64,000 nucleotides of DNA from Octopus vulgaris (lineage: Eukaryota). Below, in pieces: positions 180-63,319 of this stretch. The notes under the pieces are model-generated. The model had not been told where the DNA came from and made no database searches. It was given only the letters and a program-made list of their open reading frames with translations. The translations under genes and the position numbers were made by a program. The stretch lies in the NCBI GenBank assembly GCA_951406725.2, contig OX597817.1, forward strand, positions 60,760,001 to 60,824,000, in the 5' to 3' direction. Each line of letters starts with the position of its first letter. The stretch's first letter is position 1.

Positions 180-850
180 ATATTTAATTAGAGACAAAAC
201 CACTATTATGCAAATCAAACAAAGAAAGACTTAAGCCAATACATAAATTATTTATATAAATTTAGAAATTTAACAATTATAAATAACCACTACGATCGTT
301 TCATGTCTTATTTCAGCACATCTTTGAGACATTCTTCAGGTGGTTTAAAGCCTAAAATATAATCAAATTTTTAAGATATAAATAATCTATATAATCTAAA
401 TAAATAATTACTTATAATAAACTCTATTATTAAATATGATTATATCGAAATCGACTATAATGTTAAATATTAACTTTAATTTATAAGGTAGAAAATCCAT
501 ATCCTAATATCCATTTTAGTCTATATCTACTTATATAGATATTTGAAATGACTAATATATATAAATTATCAATGAAAATATATATAAATATTATAATCAA
601 GATCTAAAATAATCTCTATAAACGATTGTATATAATGAAAACCTAATATATTTAATTTCTCATATTTAAAGATGAAATAGCTAATTTCAAAATACAAAAA
701 ATATATATACACATGCTCATGCTCATATATACATTTATGTATATAAACATATCTAAATACGTACACAAATATAATATTTTACTATAAAATTGGATTCAAT
801 CCTAAATCTGATTTTTCCCTGTAAATTTGGATTTATTCCCTAATATTTAT
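180..850 (-). mobile_element. AT-rich Penelope-like/retrozyme remnant carrying the 285-345 hammerhead
   Basis: Non-microsatellite block bounded by (TA)n on both sides and containing a hammerhead; no recognisable ORF. Confidence 0.5.
285..345 (-). ncRNA. Type I hammerhead ribozyme motif (canonical core)
   Basis: Minus strand: aaccac CTGAAGA atgtct[18 nt]agacat GAAAC GATC GTA gtggtt. Stem I 6 bp, stem II 6 bp, palindromic stem III ACGATCGT, GUA cleavage triplet. Confidence 0.88.
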
Positions 851-963
851 TATATATATATATATATATATATATATATATATATATATATATATATATA
901 TATATTCTGTTTTCAATTTTCTATTTTTGCTATTTTCTATTTTCTCTACCTGTTTCTATTTTC

Positions 964-999
964 CTTTCTGTCGAAGAGCGTAGGATCGAAACGTTAGAG
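964..999 (+). ncRNA. Variant minimal hammerhead-like motif (core CUGUCGA) in short repeat family H1 (copy ~905-1090)
   Basis: cttt CTGTCGA a gagc gtag gatc GAAAC GTT agag; a second diverged copy lies at 1620-1654 within a homologous ~190-bp repeat. Confidence 0.55.
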
Positions 1000-1160
1000 A
1001 CTTTCTCACTTCCCAAGCGTTAAACTAATACATCTGTTTGTTGTTTACACACCCGTCTTCGTCTTTTGGTTTTTTCTTTTTTGTAAATTCTCTCTCTCTC
1101 TCTCTCTCTCTCTCTCTCTGTATATATATACATATATACATATATATATATATATATATA

Positions 1161-1522
1161 TGCGTGGTGCCTAGGACTCCAAACCTGCCATCAAGATGTA
1201 GGACAAGATACTGTGATAGCCTGGGCTTCCGAGGCCCACAGCTCTTCAATATCCTCCCGAAGAACCTGAGAGACCTGCATGGGGTGGATACAGATGTCTT
1301 TAAAATGAAGCTGGATCTCTTCCTGTCAGGTGTCCCAGATGAACCAACTTCACGGCAGGAGGGGCAGATGAGGGCAGCTGCATCGAACTCTCTCATGCAC
1401 CAAATAGCAGTTGCTAGAAAGCCTCCATGAAGTGAAACCAAGTAGCAACACCAAATGGCGGTGCCCCAGCATGGCCACAGCTCATAAGCTGAAACTAGAA
1501 TCAATCAATCAATCAATCAATC
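1161..1522 (+). mobile_element. CR1/L2-group LINE 3' end (ORF2 C-terminus, 3' UTR, (TCAA)n tail)
   Basis: Translates to ...SLGFRGPQLFNILPKNLRD...VFKMKLDLFLSGVPDEP, typical of the CR1-group ORF2 C-terminus (P.LFN.LP, FK..LD.FL); ends in (tcaa)n; 5' truncated in (TA)n. Confidence 0.75.
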
Positions 1523-1549
1523 ATATATATATATATATATATATATATA

Positions 1550-59544: not shown

Positions 59545-60610
59545 TTAGACCAGACTTATATCAGATAGTGTGCGCTGTATGAATTCGATATTAGCTTTAG
59601 CTCTTCAGCAATGGAAGCCTCTGGAAATATTCGTTCTGTCTTTGGAAATGAAGCTTTAAGTGTCCCGAGATGCCAACAATGGTTTGACTATTTTCGCCCA
59701 GGAAACTTTCCTTCAACCGATTCTGTTTGATATGGATGACCAGGTTCTGTTACTATTGACCTTCTGAAGAAAATACAAAGCAAACTACACTTAAATTAAC
59801 CAAACAGGTCAACTCAAATCGCACCACCATCATAGCACATCTTCATGAACTAAAAAAAAATGTGTCTAAATTTGGTTAGTGGTCCCTCACTATCTACTTA
59901 GTGTAATCAAAGATTTGCCCTCTGCCCCTGAGTGAGCAGCAGATTTGTTACCGAACCTTACCTGGGTAGAATCATCACAAGTGATGAAGAGTTCGTTATC
60001 TTTAATGATATTCAAAGGAAATGACAATGGTTAGCGCCCAATGATAAAGGAGAATACAACCGCAATCCACGACTACACCCGACTAAAGTTCTGCTGCCTG
60101 CTTGGTGGGGTAGGAAGAGTGACATCTATCCGGGTGTGTTAAACCAAAAGGAATCGGTTAATGCGGAGATAGTAAAGGTGTCAATTAGAAACATTGCACA
60201 ATAATTTGCAGGAAAAGCACCCGTAATTAGTTATTCTTAAAGGGGTGTTGTTTTGATGCGATCATTCAAGACCCCTTATTACTCTGGGAAAATACGACGT
60301 CGATTATGAAAATCTTGTCTCATGTTCCTCACAATCCTGGTCTTGCTCCATCTCATCGGCATCTTTTCAGATCATTGCAGCATTACGTAAAGAGAAAACA
60401 GATTATCAATTATGAGAGATTTAAAATGATGTTCAGTGTTCCTTTTCGCGAAAACCTGGAGAATGTTACGCTGGAAGGAAAAACGATTTGCCGAAGAGAT
60501 GGAATTGCGTTATCAAAAATAAGAATTATCTTCATTGGCAATATCAAGGAAGCATTTCTTTCTTTCCCGCCTTGAAATACGACAAGAGTTTCTTTCCATG
60601 CTAATATCAT
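59545..60610 (+). mobile_element. Heavily decayed mariner transposon
   Basis: Fragments LYEF, VFGNEALS...CQQWF, RIITSDE, HVPHNPGLAPSHRHLFRSLQ (YSPDLAP.DYHLFRSLQ-like). Confidence 0.75.
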
Positions 60611-61061
60611 ACATAGGTCTCCCCCCGTCTCTCTCTCTATATATATATATGTATATATATATATATATATATGTGTGTGTGTGTGTGTGTGTGTGTGTGT
60701 GTGTATAATGCACCACACACACACACAATATATATATATATAGGTGAGAGAGTTGGTGTGTAAAAGCATGTGGATGGATGTATAAAAGAAAATACGAAAC
60801 CGGTTATTTCTCCAAAAACTATGTTACTATACACAAAATTTTATAACATATTTCTAACATAACGACTTAAATATATTCTTTAACCTTATAACACAAGCCT
60901 TCTGTAGTTTTTATGGCCTGCTCGCTTAGCCAGCGGGGTGGCGTCATTCGAAGGCTAAAACAATGCGAACGCATTGTGACCAGCGATGTGTAGCAACATC
61001 TGATGGTCTGGTTGGTCACGTGATCACGTGATATATATATATTCATATATATATATATATA

Positions 61062-61270
61062 AAGTTAATCCAAACATGAAAACACAAAGAGAAAACACAA
61101 CAACGCAAGGATGTGGAACAAATATAGTATTATTGGACGCTCAGGAAGGAAGGGAAGAAGGAGGGTTTAACGTTTCGATCGGAGCTCTTCGTCAGAAACA
61201 AAGGAAAAGGAAAGATCCAGAGAAGGGAAGACGGAGGAAAAAAATCGCCAATGGTACACACGCGGTCACA
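61062..61270 (-). mobile_element. Repeat family H2 with canonical-core minimal hammerhead at 61165-61199
   Basis: Minus strand: gttt CTGACGA a gagc tcc gatc GAAAC GTT aaac. Confidence 0.78.
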
Positions 61271-63274
61271 TACATACATACATACATACATACATACATA
61301 CATACATACATTAGTGGGTGGTTGTGTACGCATGTATACCTTTATATTTCGTATATGTTTTTTTAAAACAGTTCTTCCTAAAAAAAGTTTTTGAAGGTCG
61401 TAATAACCATGTTTCTGTAATAAGTATGTAATAATTTATTTTATCAAGGTCAGTATCCGCTCTAAGCCAATAAAAAAAAATTATCTACAAAATGCATATA
61501 TTTTTTATGCTATGATATAGTTTTTTTATAATAAATAAGCGACAAAACGGATCCTTGGGGACCCCCTAACTTGTGCAGAAGTATCAAGATAACGACGACA
61601 GAAACTGCTCTTCTTTCACGCTTTCCAACTGAAAGGTTTTATTTGGCGCTTTCTACTCTCAGCTCATACACCACGCGTGTATATATGTGCACGCTGCTAT
61701 ATGTGTATGTATAAGTATGTGAATGCATGTGTGGGTGCTTAGGGAAATACGTATGACAGCACACGTATACACGGCATATACATACATACATATCCATTAA
61801 TACATTCATATATATATATGTACACACACACACACACACACACACACACATATATAGCGTGTGTTTACGTAATTTTTCGCTCGTTGGTGATGTCCTGTAC
61901 TTAATGTATTTCATATTTATGATATATATATATATGTGTGTGTGTGTGTGAGCGTGTGTGTGTGTGTGTATACATACACATACATATATATACATGTATA
62001 TATACATGCATACACACACACATATATATATATATATATACATGTATATATATATGTGTGCCTACATAAATATATATATACATATACATTAATACATTCA
62101 TATATATATATATGTGTGTGTGTGTGTGTGTGTATTCATGTAGATATATGTGTGTCTACATGTATATATATATATATATATATATATATATACACTCGTA
62201 TAAATATGTCTGCATATGTGTGTGTATAGATACATGCGATATATACATACATATGTGTTTGTGTGTGAGCGCGCATAGATATACATACATCTATGTCTTT
62301 CTGTCTTTTTGTCTCCTTGTATATGTGTGTATATCTAAATGTAAATACATACACACACACACACACACACACACACACACACACATATATCTATTTGTGG
62401 GTGGATGTTTGTGTGAGATGAATGTGTGTATGATTGTGTATGATGAAATATATACGATATACGCACACATGCAAGAGGTTGTTGCTATGGTTGACAATAT
62501 CAAATGGCTCGTGTAAGATGACCTACAAAAAGCAGACATCTTTTGATGAATATGAAGGTAGCTTCTTTACAATATATTTGCAACATCGTAATAACTAAAG
62601 CTGCTTTGAGAAGACGAACGGAACAAAAGCAATTATAATTGAAAAGGAACTTATCTTCTCTCTTACAGACTAATATTTCCTTTATAATTACTAACGTGAA
62701 GTAATGAACAACATGGATATATAATTACTGGTATCATATGCAATAGTTTACATGAAAACTAAATTGAAGGAAGAACAAAATCTTTTAGTTTCTTTAAATT
62801 GTATTTATTTGAATTTGGGGTCTGTTGTATTTTATCTTTCCCAAATTACAATCACTGCACTGCGGCTCTGCTGGAGCACAACTCTTCAATGTCTGGTACT
62901 TATTGTGTCGATCTCTTTGGCACAATCGCTATTTTGTCAGGACATGATGAGAGCACAAACAAAAAGGCTCACATACACGTACATACATAAATATATTTTC
63001 ACACATACACACATATGTATGTGTTTATATATATACATATACATACACTCACACATAAATACACACACGCACTCCCACGCATATATTTTTATATATCAAA
63101 TACCATACTACATAAATTCTTAATGTATTGAAATTACCTCCTCGGTTTTATAATTAGCAAATGGTAATTAAAACCAGCTCAACACGAGGAGATAATGTCA
63201 AGTATCAATAAATCTCTGAAATTGATAGACCATCAAGGAAAAGGATTGGCTTATTGTCAGGAGAAAAGATGACA

Positions 63275-63319
63275 GTTGTGGACATAAGTTTCTGCCTCAA
63301 TAGGCGTCATCAGCACAAC
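63275..63319 (-). ncRNA. Type I hammerhead ribozyme motif (canonical core)
   Basis: Minus strand: gttgtg CTGATGA c gcct attg aggc a GAAAC TTAT GTC cacaac; 6-bp stem I, GUC triplet, C.A mismatch at the base of stem II. Confidence 0.82.

Follow-up and report, generated by a model that had tools for sequence, protein, structure and literature searches.

The 64,000 nucleotides of Octopus vulgaris DNA analysed here (contig OX597817.1, positions 60,760,001 to 60,824,000; hereafter the window) contain seven type I hammerhead motifs with an intact core, found with a structural descriptor that demands a stem I of at least 4 bp, CUGANGA, stem II, GAAA, a paired first base of stem III and UH, and that leaves the interior pairing of stem III free. 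They lie at 285-345(-), 3384-3446(-), 7333-7384(+), 19987-20032(+), 37384-37477(-), 47974-48019(+) and 63275-63319(-), where a first-pass annotation had placed intact hammerheads, and tolerating one core mismatch brings the matches to 10 by adding 7893, 35926 and 37790. Both counts are far above those of 100 block-wise dinucleotide shuffles of the window, which yielded a mean of 0.02 intact matches (maximum 1) and 0.68 with one mismatch (maximum 4). A palindromic stem III is present in six of the seven, the window copy at 63275 combining an intact core with a non-palindromic stem III. Among other motifs proposed earlier, those at 7893 and 37790 are hammerheads with one mismatch, reading GAGA rather than GAAA; that at 61165 has an intact core and was missed by the descriptor because of a mismatch in stem II; those at 964, 1620, 2154 and 36824 belong to families in which other copies form the fold; and that at 38223 is doubtful, with neither NUH nor stem I closure in the window copy and seven related copies. 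Rfam models gave no match to the window at gathering score, and at E values up to 10 the best 150 of 613 rows were all microsatellite-like miRNA models. The window hammerheads come from at least 10 repeat families, of which A, D, E, F, G, H and most copies of C have the core CUGANGA / GAAA / NUH closed by stem I. The view that all families are unrelated does not hold for the copies at 964 and 1620 (family B) and at 2154, 35926 and 61165 (family C), which are homologous pLTRs of Neptune-type Penelope-like elements (PLEs).

Families A and D have the hallmarks of Hydra-type PLEs. The family A locus (170..900) consists of a pLTR, the 3' end of the element, at 170-769(-) and an inverted tail copy at 768-about 850(+); its hammerhead at 285-345(-) has the stem III CGATCG. 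At two other loci (L252 and L105) an endonuclease (EN) with a CxCx5C linker lies upstream, and (TA)n follows the 3' end in 9 of 15 copies. Family D, an older PLE 3' region at 3049..3595(-) with a hammerhead at 3384-3446(-) and the stem III CAGCTG, has a Hydra-like EN upstream at 3 of 15 loci. The EN of L252/L105 fits the Hydra clade of PMC8557442 in its linker and in the CxxC and CxH around the EN end, and the (TA)n target of that clade is found for both families. By these EN motifs, A and D are assigned as 3' ends of coding Hydra-type PLEs.

Family B is the pLTR of Neptune elements that encode both reverse transcriptase (RT) and EN. One window copy (937..1090(+)) has a hammerhead at 963-999(+) with U at core position 6 and a damaged stem II, and another is decayed (1595..1745(+), hammerhead 1619-1654). 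The segment previously read as PLE RT at 21055-21737 is indeed such, a Neptune-type fragment (21056..21737(-)) with 84 % DNA identity to a young autonomous Neptune family. Full-length copies of that family are 97.7 % identical to each other, and at 7 of 12 loci each of the two pLTRs has its own hammerhead, the pair lying about 4.5 kb apart (at locus L251 it was recognized by homology only). Their ORF matches RVT_1 and GIY-YIG in Pfam and, by the motifs of PMC8557442, runs from RT through a Cx2-5CxxC linker to a GIY-YIG EN with CCHH; together with tandem hammerhead-bearing pLTRs and a (TA)n target, these motifs place family B in the Neptune clade. The 5' ends of B are loosely clustered, 9 of 40 extending upstream, and (TA)n follows the 3' end in 12 of 20 copies. 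The young Neptune family, with its near-intact ORF, is autonomous and recently spreading. Core position 6 departs from the canonical A6: 46 of 50 B copies and all 28 young-Neptune copies have U there (74/78), while the remaining core and the stems are kept. This U6 Neptune hammerhead is the commonest class in our genome sample, amounts to about 6x10^4 homologous copies in this genome and escapes searches for CUGANGA; it is likely to be slow on its own.

Family C, sister to B and young Neptune, keeps the canonical A6 in the same stems, with one compensatory swap in stem I (C-G in B vs G-C in C, a single event). The window contains a C-related copy (2042..2200(-), hammerhead 2154-2188) and a C copy (35866..36025(+), hammerhead 35926-35960), both with C at core position 4, and a near-full copy of about 215 bp with the fixed 5' end (61062..61270(-), hammerhead 61165-61199). 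Only 2 of 31 copies reach beyond -15 of that end, and all 20 copies assessed have (TA)n after the 3' end. A search for a PLE ORF at 20 loci gave a single EN match, located downstream of the copy, and an autonomous partner was not found. With its fixed 5' ends, C looks non-autonomous.

Family F joins a hammerhead module to a tRNA-like head. It is represented by a 5'-truncated copy comprising (AAT)n and the module (19843..20090(+), minimal hammerhead 19987-20032) and by a single insertion at 45002..48066(+), which consists of an inverted 3' end (45002-45058), a Poseidon-type EN C-terminus (45057-45236), the 3' part of the head (45234-45265), an (AAT)n swollen by nested insertions and the module (47925-48066(+), hammerhead 47974-48019). 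This (AAT)n is internal to the element and not its target, and (TA)n was seen at the F 3' end in 0 of 12 copies; the proposal that the elements are microsatellite-lodged is thus borne out by the (TA)n after the 3' end of most A, B, C and G copies and does not extend to F. The translation of one locus (L255) gave a C-terminal GIY-YIG EN with CCHH and no Zn-finger linker, so that, by motif, long F is a PLE of the Penelope/Poseidon clade, all fetched copies being decayed. The order EN-stop-spacer-head-(AAT)n recurs at 10 of 11 EN-selected loci; an ORF ending inside the head was ruled out, as the stop lies about 33 nt upstream in 5 of 6 copies. The head has A and B boxes and best matches tRNA-Arg(TCG) (z 8.1, against 25 distinct genomic tRNAs); it is not called a tRNA by ARAGORN or Rfam and gives local hairpins and no cloverleaf fold.

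Among 30 loci selected by the head, 18 start at the same base and 27 within -14..+5, and only 2 continue into the PLE; of 24 head copies selected by the module, 2 extend upstream. The common start lies 12-13 nt before the A box, the distance at which a Pol III start is expected. The head plus module of one copy (L190) has no TTTT, and the longest T run in eight copies is 3 in five and 4, 7 and 9 in the other three, in spans not always trimmed to the element. Short F shares its 3' module with the Poseidon-type element, and its ends look PLE-like, with 5' inversions and variable 3' ends. Short F copies, with their fixed 5' ends, look non-autonomous and are likely to be a PLE-mobilized SINE that adjoins its parent. 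The head could instead belong to a separate tRNA SINE that ends in an (AAT)n tail, is mobilized by an R4/Dong LINE and often lands beside F modules, as pieces that are R4/Dong-like by motif insert in F (AAT)n runs, and 4 of the 30 head-selected loci have no module within the fetched flank. However, the module follows 26 of the 30 heads, head and module are inverted together at the 5' end in 16 of 30, and the head holds its fixed place in 10 of the 11 EN-bearing copies; we therefore regard this origin as scarcely credible for the present copies, although the head may ultimately descend from a SINE of this kind.

Families E and G consist of short tandem units with one hammerhead each and no ORF (ORF length was measured for E). 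The family E locus, flanked by (TA)n runs, spans 7169..8235(+) and comprises 1.7 copies of an ORF-less 560-bp unit (7271-8235(+)), preceded by an inverted 5' piece (7169-7272), its hammerheads lying at 7333-7384 (intact) and 7893-7944 (GAGA), both (+). Elsewhere, arrays reach about 10 units at 98-100 % identity, no ORF exceeds 123 aa, and two 3' end points are each joined to (TA)n; a PLE protein was found near 0 of 30 loci. Family G (37160..37987, assigned to neither strand) is a tandem element of about 475 bp per unit (measured at locus L062) with a 5' inversion, the stem III CTATGCATAG and hammerheads at 37384-37477(-) (intact) and 37790-37884(+) (GAGA); (TA)n follows the 3' end in 14 of 18 copies, and a PLE protein lay near 1 of 20 loci, in a match whose position does not make it an ORF upstream of the copy. 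The only word common to E and G has 9 bases and precedes the (TA)n junction, and outside the core the homology among E, G, A and D is confined to short AT-rich matches; autonomous partners of E and G were not found. Both families have array-specific shared variants, e.g. a pair of changes that 11 of the 12 units in one array have in common, and the E unit folds as a circle at -151 kcal/mol, vs -115 +/- 6 in 40 shuffles. Part of the E unit was found in 20 of 24 sequencing runs, none of them on record as RNA and 14 of the 20 only guessed to be RNA; contigs of four such runs, which cannot reveal circles, span the greater part of the unit and contain many variants, and these matches are given no weight as a sign of expression. 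By their structure E and G are of the non-LTR retrozyme type, with a predicted circular RNA form.

The remaining families are H, an old family of 72-87 % identity (63092..63747, assigned to neither strand) with a hammerhead at 63275-63319(-), an inverted decayed partner at 63541-63747 and no PLE protein near 15 loci; I (36748..36863(-), hammerhead 36824-36861), with a GNRA-capped stem II, the odd palindrome CTCNGAG and, in some members, C at position 4; and J (38218..38269(-)), a half-core plus stem II whose hammerhead is doubtful. Autonomous partners of H and I were not found.

Perfect palindromes make up 11 of 16 six-base stem IIIs (p about 2e-10 at 1/16), and over 31 clusters, among which the palindromes differ, 16 are perfect, 13 are one pair off or of odd length and 2 are other. 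Minimum-energy folds of monomers are mostly not the active hammerhead. Two-strand folds of A, E and G pair stem III between molecules, as far as folding can tell, and those of F, H, young Neptune, B and C did not give a dimeric hammerhead. With a palindromic stem III, cleavage would be confined to dimers and would probably be aided by protein. Covariation, suggested earlier as a check, is thin within families: one alignment (A1) has one compensated pair, and 41 of 500 shuffles reach its paired fraction. Because two copies read GAGA for GAAA, A-to-I editing was considered as a source and rejected, since seven sets (E, G, young Neptune ORF and pLTR, F, C and A) had no excess of A>G over T>C on the sense strand (all p above 0.14).

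Taken together, the fold, the families, the RT/EN link of A, B, D and F, the 5' inversions and the (TA)n junctions, all read from sequence, make it very probable that several PLEs carry these type I hammerheads in their pLTRs, as do short ORF-less elements likely to be copied by the same enzymes; the earlier view of them as PLE-type hammerheads with a self-complementary stem III, tied to PLE machinery, is right. The first-pass annotation had gone further, taking the whole population as non-coding and mobilized in trans. ORF-less E, G, C and short F do exist, and the tandem arrays, the array-specific variants and the E circular fold make E and G fit a reading of all families as ribozyme-processed circular retrozymes; however, B lies in pLTRs flanking a complete RT-EN ORF, EN ORFs are found upstream of A, D and F, and the short copies of C and F are monomers, not tandems. 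For A, B, D and long F, which are 3' ends of coding PLEs, that reading is refuted, and for the population as a whole we hold it to be highly improbable. The opposite extreme, that the short copies are dead 5'-truncated ends of coding PLEs and that the fixed starts of F and C are RT stall points rather than promoters, agrees with the copies of A, B, D and some F that extend into ORFs, with the local hairpins of the F head and with the treatment of single motifs in the available text of Cervera 2014. It is nevertheless unlikely, as 18 of 30 F heads start at one base at the Pol III distance from the A box, E and G form tandem units (E without a sizeable ORF), and C never reached an ORF.

Under the preferred mixed origin, a PLE protein would bind pLTR RNA and nick AT-rich or (TA)n DNA, and reverse transcription would begin at an internal position of that RNA, 100-350 nt 3' of the hammerhead; the cDNAs would mostly be short, and therefore hammerhead-bearing 3' ends would be what scatters. 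Three templates are envisaged: full-length PLE RNA, giving the truncated ends of A, B and D; tandem or circular ORF-less RNA, giving the arrays of E and G; and short RNA from a promoter inside the pLTR, giving SINE-like copies with a fixed 5' end, the putative promoter being, for C, a site that resembles an initiator and, for F, a Pol III promoter that derives from tRNA-Arg and was captured. Single dispersed copies would stay uncut, as would the F SINE RNA, in which the cut would fall between promoter and priming site. We give even odds to the joint proposition that a SINE was born inside a PLE, through a tRNA-Arg-derived Pol III promoter in the 3' UTR that yields a 280-300-nt hammerhead RNA copied by the parent's RT-endonuclease, and that the commonest, still-spreading Neptune hammerhead has a fixed U6.

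The general picture of PLE hammerheads and non-autonomous retrozymes is already published, as seen in the available text of Cervera 2014, Cervera 2020 and Li 2026, and the families may already have consensus entries in Repbase or Dfam. The population is less surprising because Cervera and de la Pena 2014 (PMC4209133) described minimal PLE hammerheads in invertebrate genomes. In the portions of that report at hand, the features shared with the octopus are numerous consensus families in one genome, a predominance of single copies with few in full PLEs, opposite-strand pairs, an extra base before stem II and a palindromic or absent helix III; the low activity as dimers reported there would also be shared. 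The same portions differ in having no cephalopod among the species, a U3-A8 core variant where ours is U6, and counts in the thousands, up to about 9,000, vs about 5x10^4 intact motifs here. E and G resemble non-LTR retrozymes, proposed as non-autonomous PLE derivatives in the accessible text of PMC7229834 and of Li, Clavereau, Pollet 2026 (bioRxiv 10.64898/2026.07.22.740005), in having tandem units that lack an ORF and contain a single type I hammerhead, and differ in unit length (475-560 bp), a long stem II, a 6-10-base palindromic stem III, PLE-type 5' inversions and (TA)n junctions. In those texts, the former (Cervera and de la Pena 2020) mentions neither octopus nor cephalopod, and the latter has no mollusc among its 35 species.

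Family F recalls schistosome SM-alpha / Sj-alpha, which, in the part of PMC6765202 available, are short non-coding retroelements with a Pol III-type promoter and a hammerhead; these are tandem and ribozyme-released, and their single copies lose the promoter, whereas F is monomeric, keeps its head at the 5' end, has a minimal hammerhead and has a coding parent with the same head in the same genome. F also resembles the TRIMp3 elements Cassandra, Helenus and Ajax in the available text of Kojima 2024 (PMC10886601), where a captured small-RNA-derived Pol III promoter inside the terminal repeat drives a short non-autonomous element; TRIMp3 are LTR elements with PBS and PPT, of which F would be the Penelope counterpart, and Penelope is not mentioned in that text. 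No earlier description of a Poseidon-type PLE whose 3' UTR contains a tRNA-Arg-like head with A and B boxes was found in the literature searched. F would offer a parent-daughter pair for the origin of a SINE from a PLE, extending the SINE-LINE and TRIMp3 patterns to a third retroelement class, and may account for part of the 893 unclassified, recently active octopus SINE families (PMC13282606).

Natural hammerheads in which core position 6 or core position 4 is altered are reported in the accessible portions of PMC3088659 and PMC7151607, namely A6C (phage Bcep176), which is slow in Mg2+ and prefers Mn2+, and U4C (viroid); unlike in A6C, the octopus base is U, and the retrotransposon in which it is fixed has a high copy number and has been spreading recently. 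A literature search for hammerhead A6U matched work on twister ribozymes and aptamer selection (Lunse, Weinberg, Breaker 2017 may list position-6 variants), and no earlier description of a young Neptune with a U6 hammerhead was found in the literature searched. With the one PLE that has been purified, cleavage was not needed for insertion in vitro and the ribozyme needed protein (PMC11167929). Young Neptune, with its near-intact ORF, fixed U6 and A6 sister C, would be a natural test of why PLEs keep hammerheads: if the commonest class truly has a fixed U6, PLEs may retain their hammerheads as structures that bind protein or are assisted by it, and not as ribozymes acting freely, and a large proportion of the hammerheads of animals would go unnoticed in searches for the standard CUGANGA.

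A systematic 1-Mb sample of the genome contained, per Mb, 19 motifs with an intact core and 82 homologous copies, which extrapolate to about 5x10^4 (range 32,000-83,000) and about 2x10^5 genome-wide. The earlier estimate of one motif per 4 kb fits the window, with 16 homologous copies in 64 kb, and not the genome, with one per 12 kb. Allowing that counting methods differ, one hammerhead-derived copy per 12 kb or so is a higher density than reported for coral, with over 6,000 motifs, and for axolotl, with 126,247 motifs in 28 Gb, and the window is itself 3-6 times richer in hammerheads than the genome sample.

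Based on a structural descriptor scan, the window contains seven type I hammerheads with an intact core and three with one mismatch, against means of 0.02 and 0.68 in 100 shuffles done in 200-base blocks; they lie where the first-pass annotation placed them. The remaining sites on its list are damaged or variant members of families that fold elsewhere, except for 38223, which is without a clear cleavage triplet or stem I. An Rfam search of the window gave zero matches at the gathering score. The hammerhead population of the window is genuine, and it is part of a known system. 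Cervera and de la Peña (2014; PMC4209133) describe numerous hammerhead families within single invertebrate genomes. Most of these occur as lone motifs, which they take to be truncated Penelope-like elements (PLEs); pairs on opposite strands are also reported, and activity as dimers is weak. Tandem retrozymes were defined in their 2020 paper (PMC7229834) and have been argued in a 2026 preprint to be non-autonomous PLEs (bioRxiv 10.64898/2026.07.22.740005). A published octopus repeat annotation reports 30 recently active Penelope families, and a term search of it returned neither 'hammerhead' nor 'ribozyme'; 'ribozyme' is also absent from a second cephalopod repeat paper. Within the largely open-access literature searched, no description of these families was found, nor of a tRNA-headed PLE derivative together with its parent. 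That parent–daughter pair (family F) and a fixed U at core position 6 (U6), both recognised at the level of sequence, are variants not found in the literature searched.

Genome-wide density was estimated from a systematic 1-Mb sample: sequences C1–C30 were read at fixed offsets, 10 kb each time, for 100 stretches in all. The genome measures 2.8 Gb, and the window occupies 60760001–60824000 of C4. The sample holds 19 intact motifs (0.2 in 12 shuffles) and, with one mismatch allowed, 55 (13.3 in shuffles). Homology to all collected hammerheads gave 82 copies, or 75 when queries from the same stretch were left out, and none in three shuffles. Extrapolated from this 1 Mb, there would be one homologous copy per 12 kb, or ~2.3×10^5 (1.8–2.9×10^5) genome-wide, and ~5.3×10^4 intact motifs. 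The window, with seven intact and 16 homologous copies, lies three- to six-fold above the sample density (Poisson p ~1e-4 to 3e-4), the queries being partly window-derived. Across ~2 Mb of overlapping and partly selected sequence, 147 distinct intact motifs fall into 31 clusters, and the unbiased sample contains 12 of these. A perfectly palindromic stem III is seen in 16 of the 31 clusters; 13 others deviate by a single pair or have a stem of odd length. Among six-base stems, 11 of 16 are perfect palindromes. Since the descriptor demanded only the outer pair, this last figure argues for selection on self-complementarity, which the dimer fold would need.

Several families can be tied to PLE clades. 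Long copies of family A, which is also present as inverted pairs, encode an endonuclease with a CxCx5C linker and CxxC and CxH motifs on either side, the motifs that define the Hydra clade (PMC8557442); a similar endonuclease lies upstream in 3 of 15 family D loci. With the Neptune-type reverse transcriptase (RT) fragment at 21056–21737 as query, a genome search gave 11,919 first-look candidates, which are not copy numbers; about 90 of 150 scored matches have an identical score, with open frames of up to 1,214 codons. The recently spreading 'young Neptune' (12 of these loci, 97.7% identical to each other) is a 4.5-kb unit with RT, CxxC linker and GIY-YIG endonuclease, flanked on both ORF sides by the same terminal repeat (pLTR) motif in seven loci; window families B (~75%) and C (~71%) show homology to this pLTR. 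In these copies (L240–L251), the ORF extends beyond the endonuclease by a C/T-rich, proline-rich stretch of variable length (100–150 codons). Stem I of the young Neptune hammerhead is 5 bp long and stem II 4 bp; the motif carries a CG mini-palindrome and the core CUGUUGA. U6 occurs in 28/28 young Neptune and 46/50 family B copies, and core position 7 of family B is free to vary (C24, A10, T10, G5); A6 is retained in all 39 family C copies, and between B and C the two bases of one stem I pair have changed sides. Among the 36 one-mismatch motifs of the unbiased 1 Mb, U6 forms the largest class, with nine, all of this Neptune lineage; the same sample contains 24 homologous copies. A natural A6C hammerhead is slow in Mg2+ (PMC3088659 and PMC7151607); no natural A6U hammerhead was found in the literature searched. 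Family C copies are ~215 bp long, with 5' ends clustered at an initiator-like TCATTC and (TA)n at the end of all 20 top loci; only 2 of 31 reach further 5', neither as far as an ORF. C occupies core position 4 in 12 of the 39 copies of family C, as it does in some members of family I (sites 35926, 2154 and 36824); a U4C variant is known from a viroid.

Family F is of Poseidon type; one of its insertions spans 45002–48066, and further elements sit inside its (AAT)n. Loci found with the endonuclease end at 45076–45234 as query have the order ORF stop, short spacer, a head of 80 bases that contains A and B boxes, (AAT)n and a 175-base module with a minimal hammerhead. The head is present in 10 of 11 such loci, the remaining one carrying deletions across it. 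Its best alignment among 25 distinct genomic tRNAs, which include no tRNA-Ser, is to tRNA-Arg(TCG) (z 8.1); neither ARAGORN nor Rfam calls it a tRNA. Among 30 loci selected by head alone, 18 start at a single base 12–13 nt before the A box (27 within −14 to +5), two continue upstream, the module is present in 26, and 16 show an inversion at the 5' end; among loci chosen by module, 2 of 24 head copies reach upstream. The unbiased sample holds seven modules and three heads, one of which runs into the PLE. From the fixed head-proximal starts, module retention and 5' inversions, we infer that short F behaves as a SINE whose RNA begins at a captured promoter and whose insertions bear PLE hallmarks. 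Hammerhead cleavage would part promoter from priming region, so that short F copies would have to derive from uncut RNA. Internal priming, demonstrated for an Anolis PLE (PMC11167929), would also drop any read-through flank. Among the systems found in the literature searched, the schistosome alpha elements (review PMC6765202) and TRIMp3 (PMC10886601) come closest. A second B-box-like word, at 47950–47975 and in the F module immediately upstream of the hammerhead, is perhaps an older tRNA remnant. Nested at 45329–47835 are two LINE 3' ends, a 548-bp element lacking an ORF, present twice here and again within AAT runs elsewhere, and an RT-region piece with a zf-RVT match, which we take from its motif to be R4/Dong-like.

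Families E and G are ORF-less tandem retrozymes. Family E, on many chromosomes, forms arrays of 560-bp units, about ten at most, that are 98–100% identical. Its copies carry inverted 5' pieces, and (TA)n adjoins each of two 3' end points, at unit positions ~306 and ~404. The longest E frame is 123 codons, and no PLE protein matches were found in 30 loci. Private variants common to the units of one array fit repeated copying of a single template, circular or tandem. In these loci (L031–L060), sense-strand G>A exceeds C>T (16 vs 2 sites, p ~0.003), an excess not seen in the other families; misincorporation by the RT, or first-strand cDNA that was deaminated, may account for it. Family G resembles E; at the single locus measured, its unit is ~475 bp. 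Directly before (TA)n, the unrelated E (8225–8235) and G (~37255–37270) share an identical 9-base word, possibly a common recognition site for one PLE enzyme. H and I are additional hammerhead families, and the hammerhead of family J is doubtful. The window also holds, on the forward strand, a mariner-type transposon with terminal inverted repeats (38281–39590; Transposase_1, E 8e-21) and a LINE ORF, represented by its 3' part and inserted behind a (TATC)n run (3690–4650; zf-RVT, E 3e-08).
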